A DNA stretch of 64,000 nucleotides from Armatimonadota bacterium (GTDB lineage Bacteria; Armatimonadota; HRBIN16): assembly GCA_942492855.1 (NCBI GenBank), contig OW818647.1, positions 1,017,864 to 1,081,863 of the forward strand, in the 5' to 3' direction. The position numbers were made by a program, and so were the translations under genes. Shown here piece after piece: positions 5,403 to 56,486 of this stretch. Under the pieces are notes generated by a model. That model saw only the letters and a program-made list of their open reading frames with translations, searched no databases and was not told the DNA's origin. Every line of letters starts with the position of its first letter. The stretch's first letter is position 1.

Positions 5403-5732
5403 TGTTTTATATCCTTATTGGAAAATAGTTCAGAACATCTGAAGATTGATATTTCCGTTAAGAACACCTATTGTCGTTGGTTCTTTTCAGAACACTATCG
5501 TGGTTAATTCTTTTGGTTAAGGTCAGGCATCACTACTAGTTCACTTGAACGTGGCGATGCAGATGGAAGGAGGTTGAAGCACTGCATTGCTAAGGTTGAT
5601 TCACTTGGAATACGATAGCGAAGCGGGTCTTGTCTATCAAAGCCCTCGGCGTTGAAGGCTAAACTTTAACTGGCTGAGTAGCTGAAGTATCATAATGCTT
5701 TCTGACTTCAGCCAGAATTAAATCTATGTCCA

Positions 5733-6413
5733 TTACTTCTGAAGCATCTGGATGAACTGGTCTGTGGGCGAAAGCGTGTCCGCAGGACTCTGTTCTTTTG
5801 AAGTAGTCCGGGTGGCCTTGGTGGAGTTAATCATCTTCTCACCCATGATGGCTCCAAAAGCTCTGTGAACATCCAGCTTTGCCTGAGCAGCTACCGTCAG
5901 GATATCCTGTACCTCTGCATCGGTTGGTTCAAGGCCGGTGTCTTGTGCAATCTGTCGTATCTTGTCAGCACCTGCACTTACAAACTCTTCAAACAGTCGC
6001 TTGGATTGAGCCTGCTGCTGTGCTTGCATGGCTTGTTTCATCTGTTCAACCTGCTGGTTTAAAGCATTTATCTTACTTTCGTAAGGGTCTGTCCATACAT
6101 CGGCAGTATCAGTAGGAGCATCCTGTGGAGCACTGTCTCCATTGATAATACTGTCCAAAAAGCTCATGTCCATTTCTGGCGCTGGAGCATTGGCAGACTG
6201 CATGGCCTTGGCAGACTGCATGGCCTTGGCAGACTGCATGGCCTGCGTAGTTCGTGATTGATACACTCTGCGTATCTGTTCAGCTACACCTTGGTATTCC
6301 TGTGGTAGCTGGGCAATCAGGTCTCCAATCTTAGGATCGGCTTCTGGAGTTTCAGGTACTTCTGGTGCTTCTGGAGTCATCATCGCTGCGAGTTCTTCTT
6401 CTGGAGTGGGCAT
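5733..6413 (-). CDS. Capsid scaffolding protein
   Basis: 226 aa, acidic/Pro-rich N-terminus and coiled-coil (LNQQVEQMKQAMQAQQQ), lying between portal and capsid. Confidence 0.75.
   Translation of the reverse strand: MPTPEEELAAMMTPEAPEVPETPEADPKIGDLIAQLPQEYQGVAEQIRRVYQSRTTQAMQSAKAMQSAKAMQSANAPAPEMDMSFLDSIINGDSAPQDAPTDTADVWTDPYESKINALNQQVEQMKQAMQAQQQAQSKRLFEEFVSAGADKIRQIAQDTGLEPTDAEVQDILTVAAQAKLDVHRAFGAIMGEKMINSTKATRTTSKEQSPADTLSPTDQFIQMLQK
6190..6243. repeat. Perfect 18-bp tandem repeat x3 (QSAKAM units) in scaffold gene
   Basis: TTGGCAGACTGCATGGCC repeated three times. Confidence 0.95.
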
Positions 6414-8025: not shown

Positions 8026-9282
8026 CTAAATTTTTCTCCTTACTGGTTGCTTCAATAATTTGGTCCTGCGTATCGACTCCTCCACCCATTCCTTGCTTCC
8101 AAAAGCTATATTCTTAGGTGCTGTTTGAAGGTGGAGATAGGCCAGAGCGTATCGTAATGAGTCCAAAAGGTGATCTTCACCGATTAGGTCTTCAGGATTC
8201 CTAGGGTCAACCTGGGCATTCTGGAACTCACTATGAATATTGGGTAGTTCACAAGCATAGTGAAGCTTGCCTTCACGGAGCAGCTGTCTTAACAGTGCTA
8301 TGGTGCCCTTTCTGTCTTTGGTACCGGGAATGGTGTTCAATCCTGACTGCTGCCATAGATCAGCCACTGACTCGCGTCCTGCACTTGTAAAGCAGGAACT
8401 GTCAGCTACAACCGTACAGCCTTCAGGTAATCCCATGGAAAGCACTTGGCCTGCCTGTTCTGCTGGAGTTAAGCCAGTAGCATACCGCTCAACATGAATG
8501 TAGAAATGGCCTTCAGTGTCCTTGGAGATTAGCAGGGAAGCAAAGGGAGCCGCCCAACCCCAGTCTAGTCCAGACACATATACTTGATTACCGCTTGGTG
8601 CTTTGATGTCAGGAAGGACGTTAAACGCTTTGCCTATATTAGTAACGATTAGAGCCTCAACTTCGCTCTGAAACACTACGTCGGGTAGACTTGCTCTCAT
8701 AGCTTCAATCTCTTCAGGATCAATAAAGGGATTACTGCTTGTCGGCATTCTCCATGAAGCCCAAGTTTCATCATCTAGCAGTGATGCCACCCAGTCAGCC
8801 CCTCTTGGGCTTGATATAATCATAGCCTTGCCGCGCTTGTCAGCTAGAGCTGGTCGCAAACAGTTGTTCCAGATGTCTTCAATGCCGTTGATGTGGCAAG
8901 CTTCATCAATGATAAGAAGGTCAAGTCCCGCACCACGCATACTCTTCGGGTTGTCACTGCTCTTACACTCGATAGTGCAATCACCAATGACCATTCTGTG
9001 TATAGGCATCATCGAGTACCGGTAAGGGATACTTAACTTATCTAGTGCTAATTGAAGGTAGTGCAGTATTTCCTTGGCTTGTGCATGGATAGGACTGACT
9101 ATCCATATACGGCAACCTGGTTTCTCAATAATCATTCGTAAACATTCAGCAGCAGCTAAATATGATTTGCCCCATCTTCTACCACACAAACAGAGACGGA
9201 ACCTGGCATCATTTTCGAAAACAGGTATCTGATTTAGGTGCAGGCCAAGCCCACAACTAGTCAGTAGGGTTTGTATCAGCAT
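8026..9282 (-). CDS. terL: Terminase large subunit
   Basis: Walker A-like CGRRWGKS, Walker B LLIIDEA, coupling motif IISSP, nuclease GLDWG and C-terminal DHLLDSLRY. Confidence 0.95.
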   Translation of the reverse strand: MLIQTLLTSCGLGLHLNQIPVFENDARFRLCLCGRRWGKSYLAAAECLRMIIEKPGCRIWIVSPIHAQAKEILHYLQLALDKLSIPYRYSMMPIHRMVIGDCTIECKSSDNPKSMRGAGLDLLIIDEACHINGIEDIWNNCLRPALADKRGKAMIISSPRGADWVASLLDDETWASWRMPTSSNPFIDPEEIEAMRASLPDVVFQSEVEALIVTNIGKAFNVLPDIKAPSGNQVYVSGLDWGWAAPFASLLISKDTEGHFYIHVERYATGLTPAEQAGQVLSMGLPEGCTVVADSSCFTSAGRESVADLWQQSGLNTIPGTKDRKGTIALLRQLLREGKLHYACELPNIHSEFQNAQVDPRNPEDLIGEDHLLDSLRYALAYLHLQTAPKNIAFGSKEWVEESIRRTKLLKQPVRRKI

Positions 9283-9634
9283 TCAACAGCGCACGTATTG
9301 CAGCTAGTGGATCTGAGGTACCAGATACCTTCTTGTTCTGATCAATAACATACTTACTAAGGTCGGCTTTAGTTCGTTCACTGCTTTCAGGACTATTAAT
9401 GAGTTCAATTATTGTATCAGCAGCAGTTGGTGCCATACCGCGTATTCTGGATATAGCTTCATCCGCATTAGCTTGCCTTGCCATATCTATCTCATCTTTA
9501 AAGTCGTGATAGATACTCGCGATAGAGGTGTTACATACTCCAGTATCTGCGATGATCTGCTTCCAACTACAACCTGCAATCAACATTTCCCTTACAAGGT
9601 TGATCTTGGTAACTGGAAGCTTCTGACGTCTCAA
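9257..9634 (-). CDS. Putative terminase small subunit (N-terminal HTH)
   Basis: 125 aa immediately upstream of and overlapping terL; HTH-like SWKQIIADTGVCNTSIASIY followed by helices. Confidence 0.65.
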   Translation of the reverse strand: MRRQKLPVTKINLVREMLIAGCSWKQIIADTGVCNTSIASIYHDFKDEIDMARQANADEAISRIRGMAPTAADTIIELINSPESSERTKADLSKYVIDQNKKVSGTSDPLAAIRALLNADTNPTD

Positions 9635-10003
9635 TTAGGCAGCAACTTCCGGTTCAACCGTCTGTACCATTCGTGCCAGTTCCACGCACCGGCCAGCATG
9701 TGAAATCATGGCATCCTGCTCGGTGGCTATACCGATCTGGCAAACGGCATGACGCAGGCACCACAGTGCATTCATCATGTCGGTGTTTGCTTGTTCAGGA
9801 TTGCCTTGTGCCATCCAGTATGCATAGCACTGCTGAAACAGAGTGCCTGCACTTACGAAGTCGCTGTTGCCTAGGTATGCCATTATGGCTTGTTCTGGGC
9901 TGAGTTGTATTACTTCTGAAGGGGTTACGAGATTGTCCATAAATGTTATATGTCCTTTTGGTTTCTTATAAACGAGGAGTGGAAATCTTGGGGCACCCGT
10001 CAC
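9635..10003 (-). CDS. Phage hypothetical protein
   Basis: 122-aa ORF coupled to the putative terS; start uncertain (GTG 10003 or a later ATG). Confidence 0.6.
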   Translation of the reverse strand: MTGAPRFPLLVYKKPKGHITFMDNLVTPSEVIQLSPEQAIMAYLGNSDFVSAGTLFQQCYAYWMAQGNPEQANTDMMNALWCLRHAVCQIGIATEQDAMISHAGRCVELARMVQTVEPEVAA

Positions 10004-10171
10004 GATGCCCCATAGACCAAGGAGGTTGGAAAACCCTGACCAATGGCAAGTAAATCAAGGCTTAGGGCTGAGGAGGTACAGCCCTAGTTACTCACACCCC
10101 TGGGATCAGATCCCTATGTGTGTGATAGAGGTTTTTACCCCTCTATATACTAGGATAGGTAGGAGGGGTAA

Positions 10172-11389
10172 TTACGGTTTCATAGCCTTCAGAGGTAATA
10201 CTTTGATATGCTTGAACAGGTCAGATACAGAACACCCTAATGCCTCGGCTATCTTTCCAGCCTGCTCTTTGGTTGGAATTCGTCCACAGTAGACCATGTC
10301 CTTGATCGTACTAGTAAGTAAACCTGTCTCATTAGCCAACCTAGGCATGGTTGTATGCGTGGCAATAGCATCACGCAGAGCGATATTTCCTGTCGTATCG
10401 AGCCTGCATTTCCTGTTCACTGCTTCACGGGTTGCAGTTCGTACGTTCGTATACCTAATAACTGGGAATAGTCTGTGGATGTTAGCCTTTAGGTGGCTGG
10501 CAACTGTCTTTGCTTGTTTCTCTGTGGGAAGAGCTTCACCATTCACTATTCTTCGTAACACAGATTTTGAAATGCCAGTGCATTCAACTATCTTTAGTAC
10601 GGATGTTTCGTAGTGACTATCAAGGTGTTTCCATAGTGTGGTGGTCACAGTATCGCTTTGCATCTCGTAACACAACTCATTTACGCTTGTGTGAAGCACC
10701 TTGCATATGTGCGACAGGTCATCGGGTATTGAACCACGATACATACTGTCTACCGTCAATGGCGTCACACCTAGCAAGGTAGAAAGACGCAGGCAGGTTA
10801 TACCTTGTGCTATGGCATGATTGTGTATGTTTTGACCGATCCTCTTATCTGATAACTTAGCAGGAATTGGTTCTCTTTGTATCTGAGGGAATAGTGTGTC
10901 CATATTCTTAGGATCAGCAAATAGGTTCGCTATAGAACAGTTCATAGCACCACATATTGCTTCAGCCTGCAGGCGTGTGGGCTCTGAATATCCATTAGTG
11001 ATGTTATTCACAACAGCTACACTTAATCCCGTCATCCTGCAGAGCTGATCATTGTTAATACCTGCAGTATGTACCATACGATTCAAGACCTTATCAACTG
11101 TTCGAAGCTGATGTGGTGGTGGGGATATCATCTCATGCCAAGTATTAGCTTCGAATTCTTTAGCAGTGATCCCGTCAGCCACCATCGATTCAGCACTCTG
11201 TGGTTTCATTCCGCTATAAGGCCTGATCTGATCCCATAAATCGGTTACCCTCACGCCAAGCATCTCGGCTATACCCTCAGCATCTCGCCATGAGGGTATA
11301 GTACCATTGATGAGGTCTCGTACTTCATTTGGGTATAGGTGAGCGGCAGCAGCAAAGGTCTCTACGTCAATGCCTTTCTCCTCTAGCAT
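10172..11389 (-). CDS. Transcriptional regulator with five tandem Cro/C1 (XRE) HTH domains
   Basis: Five repeats of the pattern L..TG.S...I..I.NG...P....A..IA..LG..V.DLF; probable start at ATG 11389 (ORF track extends it to 11440). Confidence 0.8.
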   Translation of the reverse strand: MLEEKGIDVETFAAAAHLYPNEVRDLINGTIPSWRDAEGIAEMLGVRVTDLWDQIRPYSGMKPQSAESMVADGITAKEFEANTWHEMISPPPHQLRTVDKVLNRMVHTAGINNDQLCRMTGLSVAVVNNITNGYSEPTRLQAEAICGAMNCSIANLFADPKNMDTLFPQIQREPIPAKLSDKRIGQNIHNHAIAQGITCLRLSTLLGVTPLTVDSMYRGSIPDDLSHICKVLHTSVNELCYEMQSDTVTTTLWKHLDSHYETSVLKIVECTGISKSVLRRIVNGEALPTEKQAKTVASHLKANIHRLFPVIRYTNVRTATREAVNRKCRLDTTGNIALRDAIATHTTMPRLANETGLLTSTIKDMVYCGRIPTKEQAGKIAEALGCSVSDLFKHIKVLPLKAMKP

Positions 11390-11399
11390 GTCTGCCAGC

Positions 11400-11969
11400 C
11401 TACCCACGAGCCAGCATCCTGTCGATGGACCAACCTGCATGGTATCGGTAGCGCATTACATTTGAATCTAGTCCAGTCAGCTCTGCTAAGTCACATAGTG
11501 GCAACATCAAACCGCCATAATCCAGCTTGATGGTTCGAGAGGTGTTACGCTGCTGACGCTTCCATGTGGTCCATCTACAGTTGGACAGCTCGTATCCTTT
11601 ATCATTGTCAATCCTGTCGATGGTTTGGCATCCTGATGGCCTTACTCCCATGTCGGCTATGAACACTGCAAAGTCATGCCACTCTGGGCACACTGTGATA
11701 CCGCGTTCGCCGTAGTAGTGATAGTCCTTGTTGTTTGGATTTTCGCATCGTTGAAGCATAGATGTCCACACACTATATTCTGGAGTATGCTTCATACCAT
11801 GGTGCGATACTGTACACCCGCAGCTCTTGGTCTTACCGTGTCGAACATCAGAATGTAGTGGTGTAGTCACGTTTCCGCAATCGCACAAGCACTCACATCT
11901 GGCTTTCGGAAGCATCTTGGTAACAACCAGTCGGCCAAACCTCTGGCCAGTAATATCGATTAGATTCAT
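11400..11969 (-). CDS. HNH homing endonuclease (free-standing)
   Basis: GQRFGRLVV, CxCDCG, KSCGC, YSVWTSMLQRC, YYGERGITVC and TIDRIDNDKGYELSNCRW motifs. Confidence 0.9.
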   Translation of the reverse strand: MNLIDITGQRFGRLVVTKMLPKARCECLCDCGNVTTPLHSDVRHGKTKSCGCTVSHHGMKHTPEYSVWTSMLQRCENPNNKDYHYYGERGITVCPEWHDFAVFIADMGVRPSGCQTIDRIDNDKGYELSNCRWTTWKRQQRNTSRTIKLDYGGLMLPLCDLAELTGLDSNVMRYRYHAGWSIDRMLARG

Positions 11970-12391
11970 TATTTATCTCTCCTGGAAACAATCACATATC
12001 TCTTTATGTTCTCAATCTCGTTTTCAACTGTCTTAATAGTCAACCCCATCATCTTGGCAATCTCACGTATCCGCCAGCCACAGATTATGTAGTAAACGAT
12101 GTCCCGTGCTTGAGTACCAATACTGGATTCCAGGTCGGTCAGAAACACGAAGTCACTGTCATCTGGCGTGTAGCCAATCTGTCCAACATCAACACCGGCC
12201 ATGCGTTTAGCGTGGTGCCGTTGGTTGCGTGCGATACTAGCTGATCGTCGCTGAGCAAATGTCTCAATGGGTTCTTGTCTGGTCGATGATGTGTAGTCGA
12301 TGAATATCTGGGTAGCATTGGTTGGGTAGTTGCGGATCAGATAGGTGCTAATCTCTTTATCGGTCATGATCGTCACGCAGAGCATTAACAA
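11969..12391 (-). CDS. Sigma-70 region-4/LuxR-type HTH protein, candidate late-gene activator
   Basis: C-terminal GWRIREIAKMMGLTIKTVENEIENIKR; located upstream of the packaging genes. Confidence 0.7.
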   Translation of the reverse strand: MLMLCVTIMTDKEISTYLIRNYPTNATQIFIDYTSSTRQEPIETFAQRRSASIARNQRHHAKRMAGVDVGQIGYTPDDSDFVFLTDLESSIGTQARDIVYYIICGWRIREIAKMMGLTIKTVENEIENIKRYVIVSRRDK

Positions 12392-12519: not shown

Positions 12520-12774
12520 TTAGAGGTGGATGTCAGAGCCAATACACACGTCGCCATTAATCATGTATCGGTTAAATAGGTCACGGGGTTTACAGTCGAG
12601 GGCGTTAGCAATTCTCATGGCTACAGCTATTGTCGGGATCATACTTCCTGTGCTGTATCTGCTCAGGTGCTGTACTCCGATACCTGTCCTGAAAGATAGC
12701 TGCTGGCGGTTGATACCTCGGTCGATTTGGTATGCTACCATCGGTGATAGTTTTGGGGGGCGTCCTGTTCTCAT
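12520..12774 (-). CDS. Cro/C1-type HTH regulator
   Basis: RQQLSFRTGIGVQHLSRYSTGSMIPTIAVAMRIANALDCKPRDLF XRE pattern; first gene of the leftward operon. Confidence 0.85.
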   Translation of the reverse strand: MRTGRPPKLSPMVAYQIDRGINRQQLSFRTGIGVQHLSRYSTGSMIPTIAVAMRIANALDCKPRDLFNRYMINGDVCIGSDIHL

Positions 12775-13148
12775 TGATTACCTTCTTTAATGGTTTTTAT
12801 TCGGCTTCAAATATTAATTCAAAATAGACAACAATGGAAACGTGCATTATGCCCCAATATCCTAAGATAAGACAGTAAATATACCTGTTTTTAGAAATTG
12901 GTAAAAAATAAGTGAGATTGTCTGTTACTGAGTAGGATAACAGTCGAGAAAGTGTACCATTTGCGAAATGTCTGCATATGATAATAGTAGATGCCCAACT
13001 AACAGGTGGTATGTACTATTCTTTGAAATAGGCGGGAGGCAGAAAACTAAATAGAGTGTGTGTTCCCCATTAAAGCTGTCTCTGGCTCCATTGTGTGATT
13101 CTGCGCTCCCTACCTGGTTCTTGTTCGCTGGGTAGGGATTATTCTTAG

Positions 13149-13184
13149 AAAACAGGAAACCCCACTGCCGTAAGCAAAGGGGTT
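13149..13184 (-). terminator. Probable terminator of the 14232-13249 gene trio
   Basis: Minus strand AACCCC-TTTGC-TTAC-GGCAGT-GGGGTT followed by TCCTGTTTT. Confidence 0.55.
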
Positions 13185-13248
13185 ATTGGGATAGCGATTC
13201 CTGACACCACAAGGCCCATACAGAGCATTGTTTGTATTACTGGAGTAT

Positions 13249-14577: not shown

Positions 14578-14810
14578 ACTATAGAGAGAGACTTGTCTCT
14601 ATAGTATATATCAAGTGAGCGTGCCTAATTACAAACTGTAATACAACACATACTCTAAGGGGATTTTATTACATTACAGTGTTAGAACACTTGAAATCTC
14701 TGTAATGCAACACATACTCTAAGCCCTCTTTTTTACATTACAGTTTTAACCAAGGTGTTCAGCAACTGTAATGTAGCACACTCCCTAAGTGGCAAATATT
14801 ACATTACGAG
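14578..14810. repeat. Putative phage replication origin: palindrome plus three 44-46-bp inverted-repeat units
   Basis: ACTATAGAGA/TCTCTATAGT palindrome (14578-14605) and units CTGTAATRYAR-N22-TTACATTACRR at 14636, 14700 and 14766; gene-free AT-rich region directly upstream of the replication ATPase. Confidence 0.75.
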
Positions 14811-14942
14811 TCAATTTGTACCGAAATTGAATCTGCTGCATATAATAGAGTGTAATATCGCTCTATATGATATTTCAATTACTGAATATTTACAGTGAAT
14901 TCGAATTAATTAATGTAAGACCAATTTAACGGAGGTTACCAG

Positions 14943-16043
14943 ATGTCAGTAGTAGCAGATTTCCTTAACGAGTACCACAAGTATCTAGACGGTGATGTAG
15001 CAAAAGATGAGATGTTGGGTAAGTGGCAGAACTTGACACCAGACCATCAGAAGCTAGTAAAGCGAGCAGTAGAAACATCGAGTAAGTTCAACCTGTCCTA
15101 TTTCCTACAAGACACCCTATGCCCATCCAACTCTGAGGGACAGATAGTACTATCCAGTGCTATCTTAGCTGATGATGAAGTGATAGATGTTGAACTCCCA
15201 CTGCTGGGACGAACAGGAAGCAATCTATTGTTTGAAGGAAGAGCAGCAATTATAGTTGCCGGAGCAAAGACAGGCAAGTCAATGCTAATGCTTCACTCTT
15301 TCAAACACTGGGAAGGTAAAGAGATCAAGATCTACACCGAAGAGAAGCGACCCACTTGGAACAGACGACTACACAAACTGCAGGATGCTGGAATTGTATT
15401 GGATAACCTGAAGATTGTCTATGATCAGAACGTAGGCTTCAGTGAAGTGCTGACAGGCATCTACAATACCGAGAGAAACGGAATAGTAATACTCGACACT
15501 CTCAGACGATACGGAAACTACACAGATGAGAATGACGCAATACAGGCACAGGCGGGTGTAGTACCTCTGATCGAAGCTGCAGAAGATGCCGGTGTCACAT
15601 TGATTGCCCTGCACCACAGCAACAAGACGTCATCCGAATACGGTAACCGTAGTGCTGTTTATGCAAGTGCCGGATCAACTGCCATCACAGCTAAGTTCGA
15701 TTCGATAATCCAAATCAAGAAGTGCGGTGACAAGTTAGTTATCGATGGAGACGTAAGGGATTACAAAGCCAGTAAGCTTGAAGCCAAGTGGATTGACAAC
15801 TTGCTTACTGCTATTGATCCACATGTGAACCCAGAAACTGGTAAAGAATTTACGCTTCCTGAAAAGATACTCAACCTGTTAAGAGAGGAACCAGGACTAA
15901 CGAGAAACGAGATATATGAAAAACTACAGGCAGGTTCACAAGAATCGATCAGAGTTGAAGTAAGCAACCTCAAGGGTAAAGGGAAGCTCATAGAAACTGG
16001 TTCGAGAGCCACAGCCACATATTCATTGCCGGAGGAAAACTAG
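14943..16043 (+). CDS. AAA/RecA-like replication ATPase/helicase (RepA/AAA_25-like) with C-terminal winged HTH
   Basis: Walker A AGAKTGKS, Walker B VILDTL, LIALHH.NK and AGSTAI motifs; C-terminal GLTRNEIYEKL...VSNLKGKGKL wHTH; GGAGG RBS. Confidence 0.85.
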   Translation: MSVVADFLNEYHKYLDGDVAKDEMLGKWQNLTPDHQKLVKRAVETSSKFNLSYFLQDTLCPSNSEGQIVLSSAILADDEVIDVELPLLGRTGSNLLFEGRAAIIVAGAKTGKSMLMLHSFKHWEGKEIKIYTEEKRPTWNRRLHKLQDAGIVLDNLKIVYDQNVGFSEVLTGIYNTERNGIVILDTLRRYGNYTDENDAIQAQAGVVPLIEAAEDAGVTLIALHHSNKTSSEYGNRSAVYASAGSTAITAKFDSIIQIKKCGDKLVIDGDVRDYKASKLEAKWIDNLLTAIDPHVNPETGKEFTLPEKILNLLREEPGLTRNEIYEKLQAGSQESIRVEVSNLKGKGKLIETGSRATATYSLPEEN

Positions 16044-16718: not shown

Positions 16719-17120
16719 ATGTGTTATACCACTGAGTACCATTCTTGGAGAGCAATGAAACAACGGTGTCTGTGTCCCACCAACGGGAACTACCCAAACT
16801 ATGGAGGACGTGGCATCGGCGTAGACGATGACTGGAAAGGCAGTTTCGAGAAGTTCATAGACGACATGGGACCTAAGCCAGCACCCGATTACTCCATCGA
16901 CCGCATTGATGTCAATGGCGACTACTGCAAAGATAACTGTAAATGGGCATCGATAAAGGAACAGTCAACTAACCGTCGTAACACGATCCGTGTAGACATC
17001 AATGGCGAAGCACTCACACTGCCAGAGATCGCAGAACGCACAGGCATTAACATCAAGACCATCCAGAAACGCTACTACAGCGGCAAACGGGACGATGATC
17101 TGATCAAGCCTGTCAAGTAG
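16719..17120 (+). CDS. HNH endonuclease lacking the N-terminal zinc module
   Basis: EYHSWRAMKQRC, NYGGRGI and SIDRIDVNGDYCKDNCKW motifs; in-frame TGA at 16701. Confidence 0.8.
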   Translation: MCYTTEYHSWRAMKQRCLCPTNGNYPNYGGRGIGVDDDWKGSFEKFIDDMGPKPAPDYSIDRIDVNGDYCKDNCKWASIKEQSTNRRNTIRVDINGEALTLPEIAERTGINIKTIQKRYYSGKRDDDLIKPVK

Positions 17121-17121
17121 G

Positions 17122-17156
17122 AAAACCCCTGTGTTTAGTATGCTCAGGGGTTTTTT
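17122..17156. terminator. Bidirectional terminator between convergent HNH and integrase genes
   Basis: AAAACCCCTG-N13-CAGGGGTTTTTT. Confidence 0.85.
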
Positions 17157-18046
17157 CATCTCTTTAAGCGGTGTGTCCAGCTCACTGTTTCGTGAACCTG
17201 CTGCAGTACCTCAGGCCGTATGCCAAGGTATTTCTGGGTGGTTGCAAGGGAAGCGTGACCCAACAGTTGACGTACCACTTCAAGGTTCGCTCCGCTTTCC
17301 ACCCATGCTGTCGCAGCTGCACGCCTTAGCATATGTGGTGAGATGTGTATGTGAGCCATCTTACACCGCCTCTGGAACATCAACCTAATAGCGTTGCTAG
17401 TCATCGGGTCATCATATCGGTCAACGAACAGAGAGTTGCTGTGATCAGGCCTAGACGCCATATAACGGATCAGCATCATCCTGGTTTTTGATGTGATGAA
17501 CACATATCTGTCACGCCTACCCTTTGTCTCATGAAGCACGATATTCCCTTCGATGGCATCACGTGTCAATCCAACCAACTCACCCATCCTGCAGCCTGTA
17601 TCAAGCAGGAACAGGATGATTGCCCGGTCACGCAAGTCAAGCAGTTCTTTCCCGCACGTGTTTAGAAGCTCAAGTATGGTTTTGTCAGTAGGGGGTGACT
17701 TCTGTTCGCTGTCCACCTTAGGGGGCCTTAGCTTTGCAAGCGGTGGCGCAGGCACAAGCTCTTGATTGTATACCCAGTTCGAAAAGGCCTTGAGTGTCCT
17801 GTATATGGCATGTACCGAGATCGGCTTGATTCCACGTTCAGTGGCTGCGATCAGCAAGCGGTTTGCCACGAGTAGCGTCATATCGCCAATGGTTGGTGCC
17901 ACCTCAGGGAGGTTTCGCAGGTTTTCCTGGTAGAACTCAAGTGTCCTTGGTCGCAGTCCCCTAGCTCGACAATCCTGTAGAAAGTAGGTTATAATATCTG
18001 AGGTCACAAGGGCTTTCTGATTCGTATGAATCAGGAGCTCGTCCAT
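17156..18046 (-). CDS. int: Tyrosine recombinase/integrase (XerC/D-like, no arm-binding domain)
   Basis: RDRAII.FLLDTGCRMGEL, ETKG, HMLRR, LLGH and TTQKY catalytic motifs; 296 aa. Confidence 0.95.
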   Translation of the reverse strand: MDELLIHTNQKALVTSDIITYFLQDCRARGLRPRTLEFYQENLRNLPEVAPTIGDMTLLVANRLLIAATERGIKPISVHAIYRTLKAFSNWVYNQELVPAPPLAKLRPPKVDSEQKSPPTDKTILELLNTCGKELLDLRDRAIILFLLDTGCRMGELVGLTRDAIEGNIVLHETKGRRDRYVFITSKTRMMLIRYMASRPDHSNSLFVDRYDDPMTSNAIRLMFQRRCKMAHIHISPHMLRRAAATAWVESGANLEVVRQLLGHASLATTQKYLGIRPEVLQQVHETVSWTHRLKR

Positions 18047-18110: not shown

Positions 18111-18188
18111 GGCGGCTATAGCTCAGTTGGTTAGAGCGCCTGACTGTGGCTCAGGAGGTCGTGGGTTCAAATCCCATTAGCCGCCCCA
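18111..18188 (+). tRNA. tRNA-His (GUG)
   Basis: Acceptor GCGGCTA/TAGCCGC, anticodon arm CCTGA-CTGTGGC-TCAGG, GGTTCAAATCC T-arm, G-1 and C73 identity pair, encoded CCA. Confidence 0.97.
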
Positions 18189-18405: not shown

Positions 18406-18906
18406 TCACCAAGACCGCTAAAGCGGCCTAAGGGACATCGCGCCGTATCAAACGTTCCGGGCGTTGGGTATTATATCGTTACACCAGAATGCATGCGCCA
18501 GCTTCACAAACAGGGCGAAGCCCTGCAGCCTGCTTCAGCAGGCTTGGCCGGTCAATAGCCATGTGCTTTAGCGCGTGGCATAGCGGAACAACGTCATTCA
18601 TCGTCCATCAGCCGTTCACAACATACCATCGACACTAAGAAGCACCAAATATCTATACTCTGCCTGTCCAAGGCCAACACTACCGCATCATAGTGCCATT
18701 ACCCTGTCAGATACTCCGTCCCAAGACCATCCTGTGAGCATCGTAGCATACACCTCTAGGACACCAATAAACACGATATATCGACCGCTCAGCTTGGTAG
18801 ACTTCATGTACCAATCGGTGATAATCCGGTTTGGTTGGATGACGCTAGCCTGTCTCGCATGACGTATTGTGCCCTACAGTGCTCTATGATACCAGGAGGT
18901 GATTCT

Positions 18907-21051
18907 ATGGAACCCAAACATTCTAGTCCGAAAGGCTTGAGAACATGGTGGATCGCATCATTATTGTTACTCACATGCAGCATCCAGTCGTTTGCGGCAG
19001 GAGGCACGATCCAAAGCTGGGGATTTCGGCATACCGTCCCTGGTGAACTGAACGGGTTCCAGGCGATCGCAGCCGGAATCGGTCATACAGTCGGGCTGAA
19101 GTATGACGGCTCGGTGGCAGCGTGGGGTGACAACAGTGCGAACCAGTGCGTGGTGCCCTTGCCCAACTCGGGTTTTGTGTCGGTCACGGCAGGACGGAAC
19201 CACTCGGTAGGGCGTAAACTTGATGGCTCAGTGGTGGCATGGGGACAGAATTACAATGGGCAGCTCAACATCCCCGCACCGAACCAGAATTTCACAGCGA
19301 TCTCGGCAGGATATTACCACACCCTCGGGTTGAAGAGTGATGGCTCAGTGGTGGCATGGGGTGATGACACATATGGTCAGAGCACCGTGCCGGCTCCTAA
19401 TACCGGCTTCATCGCCGTGGCAGCCGGATACAACCACAGTGTCGGACTAAAGAATGACGGCTCGCTGGTCATCTGGGGTGACAACACCTACGGTCAAGCC
19501 AACCTTCCATCGCCCAACCTGGGTTTTACTGCCATCGCCGCCGGCAATGCCCACACCGCAGGGCTGAAGACCGATGGATCAATAGAGGCCTGGGGAGATA
19601 ACACCTACGGCCAGTGTAGTGTGCCAGCTCCCAATCTGGGCTTTCTCAGCGTTGCTGCAGGACATGAACTCACCATCGGGCGCAAGAGCGGCAACACTCT
19701 TGTGGCATGGGGTAATGGCGCCAATGGTCAGCTAGCCATTCCAGCCCCCAACTCCAACTTTAAGGCCGTGGTGGCCGGCCAGTTCTCGGTATCTGGCCTG
19801 AAATTCGACGGCTCTGTCGTCGGGTGGGGTGCCAACTACTACGGTCAGACGGGGTTGCGTAACCCAAATATCGGATTCACGGCCATCAGTGCCAGCCCAT
19901 ATCACACTCTGGGCCTCAAATCGGATGGCTCCATCACGGCCTGGGGCAACGACGGCAACGGCCAAAGCAGCGTGCCGGCACCCAACACCGGGTTCACCGG
20001 TGTGGCAGCAGGCCAGTTCCACTCCCTTGGCCTAAAAGCGGATGGCACCATAGTGGGCTGGGGTGACAACTTCAGCGGCGAGTGTGATGTGCCAGCTCCC
20101 AACCAGGACTTCATCGCTGTGGCAGCAGGTGCACGATATTCGGCCGGGCTGAAGCAGGACGGCTCCGTAGTGGTTTGGGGTGACACCATCAATAACCTTG
20201 GCAGCGTCCCTGCTCCGAACTCCGGATTTACCGCCATTGATGCAGGATATGGGCACATGCTGGGGCTCAAGTCAGATGGCTCCATCGTCGCCTGGGGTGA
20301 CAATGCCTCAGGCCAGTGCAATGTGCCGGCTCCTAACAGCGGCTTTACGGCCGTGGCCGGAGGCGTCTGGCACTCCTTTGGCTTGCAATCCGATGGTTCT
20401 CTAGTCGCCTGGGGCGACAACAGCTACGGCCAGTCCAGCATACCAGCTCCCAACAGCGGTTTTACTGCCGTGGCCGCTGGTGATATGCATTCCGCCGGCC
20501 TGAAGACAGACGGTTCGATTGTGTCCTGGGGCGTGAATAACTACGGCCAGGTGAACGTGCCGGCCCCGAACCTGGGGTTCCAGGCCATCTCTCTGGGGGC
20601 CGCTCACACCGTGGCAATACGCGGCGTGCAGCAGGTCACCGGGCAGATCGTGCTGAACGGCTTCCTGGGCAATCTAGCATCACACCCGATCAACATATCG
20701 ATCCTCGGCGGGAACCCGATGGGGCCTTTGACACAGACGAATAGCGTGTTCCCACTGAGCGACGGTACATTCACCTTCGACTCTTTCCTGCCACCACCGT
20801 TTGACGTGCGGGTAAGGAGTCAGCACTTCCTGGGGTTGTTGCTTCCGGCTGTTCAAAGCCTTACTGGTCTCAACATATCGCTGGTGAACGGCGATGCCGA
20901 TGGTGATGGTCAGATCAATCTATTCGACTTCGTGGTGCTGGATTCCCGGTTCGGCATGATGAGCCGCATGGCTGATCTTGATGGCGATGGTCAGGTCAAC
21001 CTGTTTGACTACGTGATCATCGACAAAAACTTCGGAGCACTAGGTGACTAG
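18907..21051 (+). CDS. Secreted RCC1/BLIP-II-like beta-propeller protein with C-terminal dockerin-like duplicated EF-hand domain
   Basis: Signal peptide; 13 full plus one split 39-aa repeats (FTAIAAG..HS.GLK.DGS.VAWG.N..GQ..VPAPN); C-terminal GDADGDGQINLFD...ADLDGDGQVNLFD; GGAGG RBS before ATG 18907. Confidence 0.9.
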   Translation: MEPKHSSPKGLRTWWIASLLLLTCSIQSFAAGGTIQSWGFRHTVPGELNGFQAIAAGIGHTVGLKYDGSVAAWGDNSANQCVVPLPNSGFVSVTAGRNHSVGRKLDGSVVAWGQNYNGQLNIPAPNQNFTAISAGYYHTLGLKSDGSVVAWGDDTYGQSTVPAPNTGFIAVAAGYNHSVGLKNDGSLVIWGDNTYGQANLPSPNLGFTAIAAGNAHTAGLKTDGSIEAWGDNTYGQCSVPAPNLGFLSVAAGHELTIGRKSGNTLVAWGNGANGQLAIPAPNSNFKAVVAGQFSVSGLKFDGSVVGWGANYYGQTGLRNPNIGFTAISASPYHTLGLKSDGSITAWGNDGNGQSSVPAPNTGFTGVAAGQFHSLGLKADGTIVGWGDNFSGECDVPAPNQDFIAVAAGARYSAGLKQDGSVVVWGDTINNLGSVPAPNSGFTAIDAGYGHMLGLKSDGSIVAWGDNASGQCNVPAPNSGFTAVAGGVWHSFGLQSDGSLVAWGDNSYGQSSIPAPNSGFTAVAAGDMHSAGLKTDGSIVSWGVNNYGQVNVPAPNLGFQAISLGAAHTVAIRGVQQVTGQIVLNGFLGNLASHPINISILGGNPMGPLTQTNSVFPLSDGTFTFDSFLPPPFDVRVRSQHFLGLLLPAVQSLTGLNISLVNGDADGDGQINLFDFVVLDSRFGMMSRMADLDGDGQVNLFDYVIIDKNFGALGD

Positions 21052-21248
21052 GGCCTCGTGGTCGGTCAGGCCTTTACCTTGCGGTCTGGCTTGATAACGC
21101 ACTAGAAACAACGGCAATCCGCAGGCCGCTGGGCATCGGAAAAATCGGTGATGCCCAGCGGTTGTGCATCTGCAACAAATCACACTTCATCTGAGGTATC
21201 ATACGTATAGCAAACGTAAACGACATCACCAGAACAGAGGTTGCCACC

Positions 21249-21872
21249 ATGAAGATTGCCATACAAGATAACAAAGGCCAAACCATCATTTCAGGGGATT
21301 ATGTTGATATGGCAACTGCCATAGTGGCTAACAAAGGTATCCTGTTGGACGCTAACCTCGAAGGGGTTGACCTGAGCGGCGCCAATCTATGTGACGCCAA
21401 CCTGGTGGGCACAAACTTGACCGGAGCCAGTCTGCAAAACGCCGACCTCAGCAGGGCCTATCTCATCAATGCCAACCTCCAGAAAGCCAACCTAAGTTTT
21501 ACATCCCTCGTTGGAGCCAACCTGCTTGGTTCTGATTTATGTATGGTTAACCTTGAAGGAGCTGATCTGGAGCAGGCCAACCTGGGTGGTGCAAATCTCG
21601 CTAGGGCTAATCTGACACGTGCTGACCTGCGAGGTGCCAACCTCAGCGGTGCAGATTTAGGTGGTGTGCTAGGGCAAAGTGCCGATTTCCGCAATACCAA
21701 TCTAAACGGCGCCAACCTCACCAAATCGTCTCTGGACAGAGCGGATCTCCGCGGGGCCTGCCTGAACAATGCTGACCTGAGTAATGCGGTTCTGTCCGAT
21801 GCCTACCTACAGGGAGCCGATCTGACCGATGCAGAGCTAACCGGTACCGATCTGGAAGGTGCCCGGCGTTAG
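21249..21872 (+). CDS. Pentapeptide-repeat protein
   Basis: Continuous A(N/D)L.. five-residue repeats over about 170 aa. Confidence 0.95.
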   Translation: MKIAIQDNKGQTIISGDYVDMATAIVANKGILLDANLEGVDLSGANLCDANLVGTNLTGASLQNADLSRAYLINANLQKANLSFTSLVGANLLGSDLCMVNLEGADLEQANLGGANLARANLTRADLRGANLSGADLGGVLGQSADFRNTNLNGANLTKSSLDRADLRGACLNNADLSNAVLSDAYLQGADLTDAELTGTDLEGARR

Positions 21873-34724: not shown

Positions 34725-35843
34725 TTAGGCTACCCAGTCCTGCATTCGTTCAATCATCTCTTCAGGTGTAATCCGCAGTATCTCGGCTGCCCTATCGCGC
34801 GTGATCAGTTCCGAATCAATGGCTTGCCTCACTAGCCTGCTAAGTCGATCTTCTACGAAATCCACACTGTCCAGCCGTTTCGGCTCTTGAGATGCCCTGT
34901 TTTCGACCACCTTGAACGCCTCTGGAGTGAGTGGGATCGGCTCATCTTTGCGACTCAAGGAGTGCCCATATCGTCGCTGGTATTGAGAATGGAAGGACTC
35001 CCAGACACGGGGGTACCCCTTCTGCTGAAGCCGATAGAGCACGGTCGCATAGCTCACCCGAAGCATCCTTTTGATTTTGAACACTCGGTCTAGTAAGGGC
35101 TGACCTCGGGTTTCTTCCCATTCCTTATCGAAAATCAGCTCTGGCATCAGGAAATGAGCTGCGAACCTGTTTGCTTCGTCTTCCTCGTTTTGTTCTTCAT
35201 CCTGTCGGTTGGGATCGAAAGAATCAATATGCATCAGTATGTGCCCGAGTTCGTGCGCCGCGCTGAATATCCATCGTTCCACCGGGATTCGATCCCAGGT
35301 ATTGACCACAATGGCCGGTCCGCCGTCAGATGCACCGATAGACAGCCCAAAGAAATACTCGGAATTCACCGCTCGGGGGAAGACCTTCGTGCCGGATTTC
35401 TCGAGCAATCCACATATATCGCGGATTGGCTCAGAGGAAATCCCCAACTCCTGACGAACATCAACAGCTAGTAGCTCAGGACTATCTGCCGTAAGATGAC
35501 AGAGTTTCCAGCCCTCACTACTGCCTGTAAGCTCTTCAAGACCGATATAGTCGTCCAGCCAACCTGCCGCGTCGATCAGGATTTGCTCTCGTGTGTTGAG
35601 CTTGTTGCTCGCCCTGAACCTGACCGCAGTCAAACTTCTAGGAATGGTTGCGAGGTCGGCTATGCCCACTCCTAGCTGGCTGGCGATGGACATGAGCGTA
35701 TTGATCTTTGGCATCGCCTTACCTGACTCGTAGTTACGGAGACTTGCTACGCTGATTTTAGCCAGGTCTGCCACATGCTCTTGTGTAAAGCCTCTGGTGA
35801 GGCGCAGCCTTCTGATGTTGTTACCAATGGTATTGTGTTCCAT
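34725..35843 (-). CDS. XRE-HTH fused to ImmA/IrrE (M78, COG2856) zinc metallopeptidase
   Basis: IGNNIRRLR...TQEHVADLAKISVASLRNYESGK HTH; RWIFSAAHELGHILMH HExxH motif; EDEANRFAAHFLMP. Confidence 0.92.
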   Translation of the reverse strand: MEHNTIGNNIRRLRLTRGFTQEHVADLAKISVASLRNYESGKAMPKINTLMSIASQLGVGIADLATIPRSLTAVRFRASNKLNTREQILIDAAGWLDDYIGLEELTGSSEGWKLCHLTADSPELLAVDVRQELGISSEPIRDICGLLEKSGTKVFPRAVNSEYFFGLSIGASDGGPAIVVNTWDRIPVERWIFSAAHELGHILMHIDSFDPNRQDEEQNEEDEANRFAAHFLMPELIFDKEWEETRGQPLLDRVFKIKRMLRVSYATVLYRLQQKGYPRVWESFHSQYQRRYGHSLSRKDEPIPLTPEAFKVVENRASQEPKRLDSVDFVEDRLSRLVRQAIDSELITRDRAAEILRITPEEMIERMQDWVA

Positions 35844-54674: not shown

Positions 54675-56486
54675 TTGGCAAGCCGAGTAACTAGTGACAT
54701 TGAAGACATCCGAGCCGCCAACGACATTGTCAGGGTGGTATCTGGATATCTAACCCTTAAGAAATCGGGCAGAACCCTTAGCGGGCTCTGCCCCTTCCAT
54801 CATGAGAAGACCCCCTCCTTTTACGTCTACCCCGATACTCAACGCTTCTCATGCTATGGATGCGGGTTGTACGGTGATGTTTTTGCGTTTATCATGCGCG
54901 CTGAGAACCTCAACTTTCCCGAAGCGGTGAACCTTCTGGCAGAGCGTGAGGGTATGGAATACCGCACCGCAGGTTACAACAGCAACGCCCCCAGTAGAGA
55001 CCATCGGGAAACCCTGCTCGTGGCCAATGAAATGGCCCTTCAATACTATCAAGAGATGCTGCCTCAGCATCAAGTGGCCCAGGAGCTTATCCAACAACGC
55101 GGACTGACCCAGGAGACCGTCACAAAGTTTTGCATCGGGTACGCCCCTGAGGGCTACCGTGGGTTGATGAACCGGCTGGAACAGCGGAATGTGACCAAAG
55201 AGGCGGCTCTTGAAGCCGGTTTACTGACCCAAAATGAAAAGGGTGATATCTACGACCGCTTCCGCAACAGGCTGATGTTCCCCATTTGGGACGCTCAGGG
55301 GCGTGTGGTCGGATTCGGTGGACGGGCCATGGAGGCCGATGCGAAACCAAAATACCTGAACACTTCCGAGACACCTGTCTTCCGGAAAAGCCGCATCATC
55401 TATGCGCTTCACCTCGCCAAGACCAGGATACAGTCCGAAAAGACGGTTCTGCTGCTGGAGGGCTACATGGATGTCGCGGCGGCGCACCAGGCGGGGTTCA
55501 CCAATGCCATCGCCACAATGGGCACCGCCATCACGCCAGAGCATGTGGGTATTCTGAAGCGGTTCACTCAACATGTCACAGTTGTCTACGATGGCGATAC
55601 CCCAGGCCAAAACGCCTCCAGCAAAGCCGCCGCAGAGCTGCTGTCGCAAGGCCTCCAGGCATCCATCGTCTGCCTGCCAGATAACCATGATCCTGACAGT
55701 TATGTGAAGCAGTACGGTGCGAAGGCCTTTTCCGAGCAGTTGCAATCAGCCGTCCAGGTGATTGAGTTTGAGTTGAACCGCATCGCAACGCAACACGACA
55801 TGTCGCGGCCGGAGGAACGGGTGCAGGGTCTGCATAAAATGATCGAAGTGCTGGCCAACATCCCCGATTCGCTGCAGCGCGAACAGTATATCATGCAGGT
55901 TCTGCGTTATCATCCGGCGGGGTTCACAGACGCCAGCGGAGCGGCGGCCCAACTGCGGCGGGAAATCGCTCTGGCCCAGCGCCAGCGTCACGATCAGGCG
56001 AAACGACGGGATCTATACCATCCTGAGCCCGAGCAAGGTGAACAGCCGCAGCGTCCGGCTCCTATCGTCGAACCACTGCCTAGGTCGGGAATCCTCGCGG
56101 AGGCGGTATTATTAAAGGGTATATGCAGTATCGAGTGGTGCCGTTACACCATAGATGCACTCGGCAGCACCTCACTGGCAACAGAAGGCGCACAGGTGTT
56201 TTTTGCTCTGGCCGTATTGCAGATATCGCAGGGTGAAGACGCCAACCCTGTGCAGATACTGGCACAAATGACCAATGAGTGCGACCGAGAGCTTGTATCG
56301 CGGCGGTTGGGCGAAAATGAGCCTGTCAACAAGGGTTCTATTGACGGAGCGGTCAACTGGCTGAAAAAGCAGATGGTGGAACAGCGGAAACGGCAGTTAC
56401 AGGAGTTGCTTCAGAAAGGTGCTGAGGGCGACACCGATGCGCTGGCCGAGTATCAACAGTTGATGCAGCAAAAACATCACAACTGA
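54675..56486 (+). CDS. dnaG: DNA primase
   Basis: CPFHHEKTPSF...CYGC zinc finger, FRNRLMFPI, KYLNTSET, EGYMD and YDGD.PG TOPRIM motifs. Confidence 0.98.
   Translation: MASRVTSDIEDIRAANDIVRVVSGYLTLKKSGRTLSGLCPFHHEKTPSFYVYPDTQRFSCYGCGLYGDVFAFIMRAENLNFPEAVNLLAEREGMEYRTAGYNSNAPSRDHRETLLVANEMALQYYQEMLPQHQVAQELIQQRGLTQETVTKFCIGYAPEGYRGLMNRLEQRNVTKEAALEAGLLTQNEKGDIYDRFRNRLMFPIWDAQGRVVGFGGRAMEADAKPKYLNTSETPVFRKSRIIYALHLAKTRIQSEKTVLLLEGYMDVAAAHQAGFTNAIATMGTAITPEHVGILKRFTQHVTVVYDGDTPGQNASSKAAAELLSQGLQASIVCLPDNHDPDSYVKQYGAKAFSEQLQSAVQVIEFELNRIATQHDMSRPEERVQGLHKMIEVLANIPDSLQREQYIMQVLRYHPAGFTDASGAAAQLRREIALAQRQRHDQAKRRDLYHPEPEQGEQPQRPAPIVEPLPRSGILAEAVLLKGICSIEWCRYTIDALGSTSLATEGAQVFFALAVLQISQGEDANPVQILAQMTNECDRELVSRRLGENEPVNKGSIDGAVNWLKKQMVEQRKRQLQELLQKGAEGDTDALAEYQQLMQQKHHN

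Follow-up and report, generated by a model that had tools for sequence, protein, structure and literature searches.

A prophage gene encoding five tandem XRE-type helix-turn-helix units is an exactly gene-delimited, divergent cassette between two sister phages

The Five-HTH Gene and Its Product

We analyzed a 64,000-nucleotide stretch of contig OW818647.1 from an Armatimonadota bacterium (assembly GCA_942492855.1), hereafter called the window. Its bases 1 to ~18150 form a prophage with a guanine-plus-cytosine (GC) content of 45.9%, the surrounding host region being at 56%. The prophage is integrated at a tRNA-His gene (18112–18188) and its integrase is encoded at 17156–18046. On the minus strand of this prophage lies an open reading frame (ORF) whose whole domain content is five helix-turn-helix (HTH) units of the XRE/Cro-C1 type, and which we call the five-HTH gene (table 1). 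It is the last cistron of a regulatory operon in which the genes overlap or abut. Read leftward, this part of the prophage starts with three unknown ORFs, followed by a 474-bp gap (12775–13248) and the genes for a Cro-like protein, a 66-aa ORF, a sigma-70 region-4-like protein, a CapR/AP2-type protein, and the five-HTH protein. A 168-bp gap (10004–10171) then precedes a 122-aa ORF, a TerS-like ORF, TerL, a Zn-ribbon ORF, the portal, and the major capsid genes. Packaging and structural genes thus lie directly downstream of the five-HTH gene, which agrees with an initial annotation, made from the sequence without database searches, that had placed it just before the late operon. The TerS-like ORF is named by its position and matched no terminase family in general Pfam, PHROGs, and NCBIfam scans. 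The sigma-70 region-4-like protein is a candidate late-gene activator. The Cro-like protein and the units of the array are of one HTH_26 subtype and 33–37% identical. In the window, the position expected for a CI gene is the 474-bp gap without a gene.

The five-HTH ORF has three in-frame starts, ATG 11440, GTG 11407, and ATG 11389, the longest form measuring 422 aa. The initial annotation had placed the start at ATG 11389. GTG 11407, 18 nt upstream, is likely the better start, because it restores helix 1 of unit 1, is preceded by AGGA, and creates an 8-nt overlap with the CapR/AP2-type gene that is the same in a sister phage described below. It is also the choice of the gene caller (product P0001, 411 aa).

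Searched with the whole protein, Pfam HTH_26 was matched in five stretches with an E value of 3e-27 (95.1 bits, cut-off 22) and HTH_3 with an E value of 7.6e-20 (71.1 bits, cut-off 23). Nearly all other Pfam matches are weaker HTH or winged-helix models on the same residues. Matches in PHROGs are confined to transcription-regulator families, and those in NCBIfam and PADLOC to generic HTH models. As had been noted initially, no peptidase or other effector domain is present according to these four collections. The match to the NCBIfam Wmk equivalog (NF047948) reached 22.6 bits for a cut-off of 300, so the protein is not a member, and a comparison with PDB sequences gave nothing significant. We also built a custom hidden Markov model (HMM) from 32 HTH units, all taken from unrelated tandem-HTH proteins; by HMMER it detects exactly five domains in the five-HTH protein (independent E values, i-E, in table 1). 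Pfam and this independent HMM therefore bear out the five diverged units first recognized by the motifs GVRVTDLW, NCSIANLF, HTSVNELC, KANIHRLF, and GCSVSDLF (residues 62, 167, 250, 318, and 402 of the 422-aa form).

All five units follow the pattern G-I/L...L...TG-I/L......I..G..P.....A..I...L......LF and keep the hydrophobic pattern of HTH_26. Their kinship is visible only at the profile level, pairwise BLAST between the units giving no significant similarity. Scanned singly, units 1, 2, and 5 pass the HTH_26 cut-off; unit 3 is matched by phrog_4779 (E 2.4e-5) and by the NCBIfam Wmk model (E 6e-5), and unit 4 by the PHROG regulator family phrog_3557 (E 6e-11, residues 284–325 of the 422-aa form). 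The four linkers measure ~42, 20, 5, and 21 aa; the range of 20–40 aa given in the initial annotation does not hold as a general rule. Linker 1 forms two short helices in a low-confidence AlphaFold2 (AF2) model, and a short basic tail, KVLPLKAMKP, follows unit 5. In the same model the helices fall into five groups of four or five, a pattern compatible with five bundles. When it was compared with PDB by Foldseek, the top 50 matches, none of them significant, were all XRE-family HTH proteins, most aligned over ~60 residues, including 434 Cro, P22 c2, C.AhdI, and SinR, with target template modeling (TM) scores of 0.7–0.85.

Table 1. Features of the Five-HTH Locus and Its Surroundings (Window Coordinates; Unit Residues in the 411-aa Numbering)
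Feature	Position	Strand	Description
Five-HTH gene	10172..11407	-	411 aa; GTG start 11407, stop codon 10172-10174; from ORF list, gene caller, Pfam
HTH unit 1	11225..11407	-	aa 1-61; acidic, pI (isoelectric point) 4.3; HTH_26 27.5 bits; custom i-E 9e-5; orthologous to P0002 unit 1 (Smith-Waterman 107)
Linker 1	11099..11224	-	aa 62-103; DGITAKEFE common to P0002 (alignment); no Pfam match
HTH unit 2	10910..11098	-	aa 104-166; best conserved; HTH_26 36.8 bits; custom i-E 1e-13; Smith-Waterman 134 against P0002 unit 2
Similarity island in unit 2	10951..10993	-	43 bp, 86% identity (blastn against L001), encodes GYSEPTRLQAEAIC; sole DNA-level similarity inside the gene
HTH unit 3	10661..10849	-	aa 187-249; weakest; HTH_26 14.9 bits, E 0.033; custom i-E 1e-4; no counterpart in P0002
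HTH unit 4	10457..10645	-	aa 255-317; basic, pI 9.7; HTH_3 19.1 bits, E 0.0014; custom i-E 2e-6; orthologous to P0002 unit 3 (score 70)
HTH unit 5	10205..10393	-	aa 339-401; HTH_26 23.8 bits; custom i-E 6e-13
CapR/AP2-type partner gene	11400..11969	-	189 aa; Cys-rich CapR-like N-terminus, AP2-type middle, C-terminal 3-helix HTH-like end (predicted)
Sigma-70 region-4-like gene	11969..12391	-	140 aa, abuts CapR/AP2-type gene; Sigma70_r4_2 23 bits (cut-off 25.7); phrog_1740 sigma factor E 1.9e-5
Cro-like single-HTH gene	12520..12774	-	84 aa, first operon gene; HTH_26 E 8.9e-10
TerS-like ORF	9257-9634		125 aa; just upstream of TerL
Palindrome ATAGAG-N10-CTCTAT	10125..10146		In the 168-bp gap before the late operon; further copies 14581-14602, 14845-14866

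Phage repressors normally carry one HTH and gain specificity by dimerization, and bacterial HTH regulators in general are almost always described as having one domain per chain, with specificity obtained by oligomerizing. Single chains with several HTHs are known from AraC and MarA (two HTHs), Myb R1R2R3, paired and POU domains, and engineered single-chain 434 repressors; covalently linked HTH modules of this kind read consecutive or separated major-groove sites without oligomerization. These are other HTH families or engineered constructs, and we know of none among them with five XRE domains. Each unit of the five-HTH protein shares its domain family and predicted fold with classical Cro and CI repressors (434 Cro, P22 c2, the N-terminal domain of lambda cI). 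Unlike them, the protein has five such domains per chain, lacks a dimerization or S24 peptidase domain, and is encoded at the end of a regulatory operon, ~1.4 kb from the promoter region of the Cro-like gene, and not at the divergent immunity locus. The initial annotation had proposed a single-chain multivalent DNA reader. The five-XRE chain without effector domain stands as described; the reader role we infer from the architecture, and on balance we favor, with some reserve, a monomeric, multivalent, sequence-specific DNA-binding regulator.

A Sister Phage and the Exchange of the Array

When 1.84 billion cluster representatives were scanned exhaustively with HMMER, one true orthologue emerged, the 344-aa protein P0002 (E 1.8e-26); no other was found in ~15 billion proteins. 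P0002 is encoded by a sister phage on a 32-kb contig, L001, in the same gene order as in the window prophage: integrase, AAA_25 genes, Cro-like gene, small ORF, sigma-like gene, CapR/AP2-type gene, multi-HTH gene, and late genes. At the CI position L001 has a gene for a 262-aa CapR/AP2 paralogue, divergent from the Cro-like gene. The custom HMM detects four domains in P0002. According to Smith–Waterman scores, units 1 and 2 of the five-HTH protein pair with units 1 and 2 of P0002, unit 4 with its unit 3, and unit 5 roughly with its unit 4, leaving unit 3 unpaired. A word-indexed search of 5.8 billion proteins with the five-HTH protein returned only itself, and neither the gene nor its 8-kb region had a match among 50,697 phage records (tblastn, megablast). 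A generic tandem-HTH query had no match among isolated-phage records, and scans of genome contigs and viral contigs with patterns from the two-sequence alignment returned nothing. The phage lineage is isolated, the next TerL outside its own cluster being at most 36% identical in a protein search. As TerL used as bait recovered no sister phage from IMG/VR and one distant match from JGI metagenomes, the comparison is limited to this one relative.

The two phages are otherwise similar. Amino acid identity reaches 96% for the integrase, 94% for TerL and for the portal, 93% for the Cro-like protein, 90% for the major capsid protein, and 89% for the TerS-like protein. It falls to 66% for the sigma-like protein, 64% for the CapR/AP2-type protein, and, for the multi-HTH protein, 32% over 184 aa or ~22% over a longer alignment. 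DNA homology ends at 11405, in the start codon of the five-HTH gene, and restarts at 10186, at its stop, with a single short island of similarity in between (table 1). The 168-bp gap downstream is largely conserved and belongs to an 83%-identical block. The five-HTH gene is thereby the most divergent, exactly gene-delimited cassette between the two genomes; their other strongly divergent part is the early/replication module, with its iterons and palindromes. The four-HTH allele of the sister phage (L001 9871–10905) has a GC content of 56.7% and a third-codon-position GC content of 58.6%, for about 47–50% in its flanks. This suggests, from base composition, that the allele came recently from a source of higher GC content. 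The window allele, at 45.5% GC, resembles its own prophage. Divergence that coincides with the gene borders, together with the GC content of the sister allele, indicates that the slot is a point of exchange and not only the seat of a fast clock.

Divergence is also uneven within the orthologous units. The recognition helix belongs to helices 2–3, where the window protein and P0002 have 5/23 identical residues in unit 1 and 8/18 in unit 2; conservation is higher in helices 4–5, at 13/24 in unit 1 and at 14/14 over the unit 2 stretch GYSEPTRLQAEAIC.

This contrast between the array and its surroundings bears on a possible role in packaging, in which the array would recognize a cos or pac region and hand the DNA over to TerS and TerL. 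Downstream of the five-HTH gene, the TerS-like gene follows at a distance of ~0.5 kb and TerL at ~0.9 kb, and the gap 10004–10171 contains three consecutive inverted repeats, largely conserved in L001, with a compensatory change in one stem. However, Pfam, PHROGs, and NCBIfam reveal no similarity of the five-HTH protein to TerS or another packaging family, and a cos or pac reader should covary with its site, whereas TerS, TerL, and the gap are 83–94% conserved and the array is not. We consider a packaging-specificity accessory very unlikely. In the gap itself there is no T-run and no Rfam match, and its folding energy is unexceptional (z −1.7). A prophage-wide Rfam scan retrieved tRNA only.

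The Overlapping CapR/AP2-Type Gene and Other HTH Arrays

The CapR/AP2-type and five-HTH ORFs are separate and in different frames, with an 8-nt GTG...TAG overlap found in both phages. Read from this overlap, the five-HTH gene is translationally coupled to its neighbor. A fusion of the two ORFs by frameshifting was considered and dropped, as no slippery heptamer was seen on reading the overlap, on which no pattern search was run. The family to which the 189-aa protein belongs numbers at least 1742 proteins and has matches in 1203 phage records. The labels of its members vary between HNH endonuclease, homing endonuclease, DNA-binding domain protein, and AP2 protein, and some members occur within inteins. 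PHROG families named HNH endonuclease match the 189-aa protein only in a non-nuclease part, no nuclease domain was detected in it, and it has no Pfam or NCBIfam match, including none to AP2, DUF723, or DUF4397. Cysteines C27, C29, C31, C50, and C52 are conserved across 93 homologues and have the spacing of C33/35/37/56/58 of CasPRIB1. The AF2 model of the protein is confident (pLDDT, predicted local distance difference test, 93.6). Its structural relatives in BFVD are named AP2/ERF or HNH or HTH homing endonuclease, and what Foldseek retrieved from PDB was noise (Tudor, IF1) and nothing meaningful, so that no solved structure backs the putative AP2 fold. We read the protein as a predicted nuclease-free DNA binder of CapR-like/AP2 type whose C-terminus carries a small HTH. 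Its putative AP2 and CapR labels come from motif spacing, from the annotations of others, and from the HHpred analysis of a preprint. Genes of this type are multicopy in both phages, with two in the window (including 16719–17120 on the plus strand) and three in L001 (1035–1631 and 7410–8198 on the minus strand, 9306–9878 on the plus strand).

The closest described combination is CasPRIB2 (AcrIB12) of Listeria seeligeri prophages, in which two CapR, one AP2, and four HTH domains form one chain (bioRxiv 10.64898/2026.02.23.707548). Like the locus described here, it is prophage-encoded and combines a CapR Zn finger and an AP2-type binder, both putative in the window, with a string of HTHs; the cysteine spacing of CasPRIB1 is found in the 189-aa neighbor and not in the five-HTH protein. 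In CasPRIB2 the HTH string is fused C-terminally, whereas here it is a separate polypeptide of five units whose gene overlaps that of the binder by 8 nt. The comparison is by description only, and the type of the CasPRIB2 HTHs is not stated in the preprint.

By analogy, the two window genes might constitute a split CasPR-like module for counter-defense or competition, the CapR/AP2-type protein and the array shutting off the transcription of host defense or rival-element genes by binding within them, or the array autoregulating the pair like Aca. The cysteine spacing and AP2/ERF-named relatives of the neighbor, the fusion of the same elements in CasPRIB2, and the overlap kept in both phages are consistent with such a module, and a rapid turnover of the array would fit an arms race. 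On the other hand, the neighbor matches neither Pfam AP2 or DUF723 nor a PDB fold, and the very large family to which it belongs consists mostly of relatives of homing endonucleases. The acr locus context of CasPRIB2 is not seen here, no known acr genes being nearby, and the host is not evidently a member of Bacillota. No CRISPR-Cas system turned up in the window, in which no search aimed at CRISPR-Cas was made, and the HTHs are dispensable in CasPRIB2 itself. We regard this explanation as unlikely.

Proteins with two to 11 tandem XRE domains, unrelated to the five-HTH protein, were found among metagenomic sequences in the same HMMER scan: P0003, of 883 aa with 11 HTH_3 stretches (L002 3667–6318), P0006 and P0009 with five units each, P0004 and P0010 with four each, and P0008 with two. 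Like the five-HTH protein, they consist of repeated HTH_3/HTH_26 domains joined by short linkers. Unlike P0002, they are not orthologous to it, their E values of 4e-19 to 7e-4 being driven by the repeats, and their units are much more regular than those of the five-HTH protein. P0009 also has CxxC motifs resembling a Zn ribbon at its N-terminus, and P0006 has a further region at its C-terminus, neither of which is present in the five-HTH protein. Their contexts are not of this phage type, or their contigs are too short to judge. The P0003 gene, the extreme case of the array architecture, is next to an RmuC gene and a gene for a 931-aa unknown protein, in a context that does not look phage-like. 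Among prophage proteins, Wmk of Wolbachia prophage WO is presented as having two tandem XRE HTH domains and a presumed function in transcriptional regulation (PMC6736233). It resembles the five-HTH protein in being a prophage product made of tandem XRE HTHs, and the Wmk model touches unit 3; it differs in having two domains instead of five and in its unrelated host and biology. As tandem XRE arrays exist in other proteins and CasPRIB2 carries an HTH string, the five-XRE architecture is less novel than it first appeared. The tandem-XRE architecture itself is not new; an orphan, stand-alone array of five XRE domains in a swappable slot is an unusual variant. In the literature we found no characterized protein made solely of four or more XRE domains.

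DNA Sites and the Predicted Role of the Array

The palindrome ATAGAG-N10-CTCTAT has three matches where 0.01 would be expected. All are in noncoding prophage DNA; one is located between the five-HTH gene and the late operon, and the two others flank an array of repeats. At the homologous site of L001 (10939–10961) the sequence is ATGGAG-N11-CTCCAT, both arms being changed symmetrically. The palindrome looks like an operator or a hairpin. The repeat array (14636–14814), which precedes the AAA_25 replication gene (14943–16043), comprises three 49-nt copies with 64- to 66-bp spacing, each bounded by CTGTAAT...ATTACAG. These repeats are probably origin iterons. In L001, different iterons (5499–5792, 78-bp spacing) lie upstream of that phage's own AAA_25 gene. 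In both phages the iterons precede an AAA_25 gene, and their sequences differ; they are more simply explained as Rep sites than as targets of the five-HTH protein. The connection to an origin half-site array drawn in the initial annotation finds no support: nothing ties the protein to these repeats, which are more simply the origin of the AAA_25 gene.

These sites are central to a phage-internal switch, in which the array would bind the phage's own control DNA, either the three palindromes or the iterons, and time late-gene expression or replication or maintain lysogeny. The rank of the five-HTH gene as the last before the late operon, the palindrome in the gap just downstream, and the lack of a gene at the CI position of the window, where L001 encodes a CapR/AP2 paralogue, are in line with this, as is the strong divergence of the early/replication module in which iterons and other palindromes lie. 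Yet a dimer, such as one of the 84-aa Cro-like protein, would fit the palindromes, and the iterons fit the origin discussed above. Moreover, the late-operon leader is conserved when the recognition helices are not, and the sigma-70 region-4-like protein of the same operon is the better candidate for a late activator. A switch of this type is possible but doubtful.

We therefore return to the multivalent DNA-binding regulator. In this model, five Cro/XRE HTHs on flexible linkers would replace, by covalent repetition, the dimerization of one-HTH repressors. The chain would either recognize one long, asymmetric composite site or link several sites, with avidity contributed by the tandem domains. 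Made as the last regulatory cistron and coupled to a predicted nuclease-free CapR/AP2-type binder, it would probably work as a repressor or roadblock, either together with that protein or next to it, and its slot would serve as an exchangeable specificity cassette. Since the two phages have different arrays but a conserved late-operon leader and Cro region, the targets are likelier to lie outside the phage, in the host or in competing elements, or within its variable early/replication module, and less likely to be the conserved late promoter. There is precedent in the linkage of CapR/AP2 domains with an HTH string in CasPRIB2 and in DNA binders of the homing-endonuclease type, described as "beads on a string" and found at borders of genetic exchange between phages (PMC10448857).

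Several observations weigh against this model. Unit 1 is acidic, the overall pI of the protein (8.0) is near neutral, and units 3 and 4 remain below the cut-offs when scanned singly. The AF2 model of the five-HTH protein, computed from a two-row alignment, is of low confidence (pLDDT 49.8), and the E values of its Foldseek matches are 0.12 or higher. The position adjoining TerS is also compatible with a late-gene or packaging role, and all comparative statements rest on two phage genomes. Finally, the HTHs of CasPRIB2 are not needed for anti-CRISPR activity and are proposed to be autoregulatory (bioRxiv 10.64898/2026.02.23.707548).

The acidic unit 1 and the degenerate units 3 and 4 would also suit a protein that does not bind DNA, either a decoy or anti-repressor capturing XRE repressors or a decaying passenger of exchange driven by homing endonucleases. 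A gene of the homing-endonuclease type does stand beside it at a recombination border, in the pattern reported for other phages (PMC10448857). However, both phages keep an intact reading frame in spite of the deep divergence of the gene, the HTH_26 hydrophobic pattern is kept in all units, and the translational coupling is conserved. Such a protein is very unlikely; the initial annotation had suggested a repressor or an anti-repressor decoy, and on assessing it we found nothing for the decoy. The likelihoods that we give to the alternatives overlap with that of the multivalent regulator, as these explanations are not mutually exclusive.

A bolder form of the multivalent regulator would be an exchangeable modular XRE code. 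Each unit would account for several base pairs of the site, the number of units would change by gain or loss (five in the window, four in the sister phage), and recognition helices would be swapped, so that together with the CapR/AP2-type protein a roadblock could be retargeted to host defense genes or rival phages. We consider this improbable. If true, it would represent a split, programmable relative of the CasPRs outside Bacillota. A stand-alone five-XRE chain would be another solution to DNA recognition by HTH regulators, attaining avidity and long asymmetric recognition through covalent repetition. The swappable slot, the fast-changing recognition helices, and a coupling to a CapR/AP2-type gene that mirrors CasPRIB2 make it a tractable case for asking how phages retarget DNA-binding specificity and whether CapR/AP2 repressors work with HTH strings. 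If it merely autoregulates its own operon, it would be a curiosity.

Outside the prophage, host genes (18835–21872 and 54675–56486) include those for an RCC1-repeat protein, a pentapeptide-repeat protein, and DnaG. This DnaG is 29–41% identical to its best 80 matches in 185,579 species-representative genomes, and the lineage appears poorly represented there. Another host-region ORF (34725–35843, minus strand) encodes an XRE HTH fused to an HExxH ImmA/IrrE-like domain, matched by the PADLOC RmrA model (E 1e-33) and by capP/capH models. It lies within a local GC dip (34–36 kb) and may regulate a neighboring defense or mobile module.

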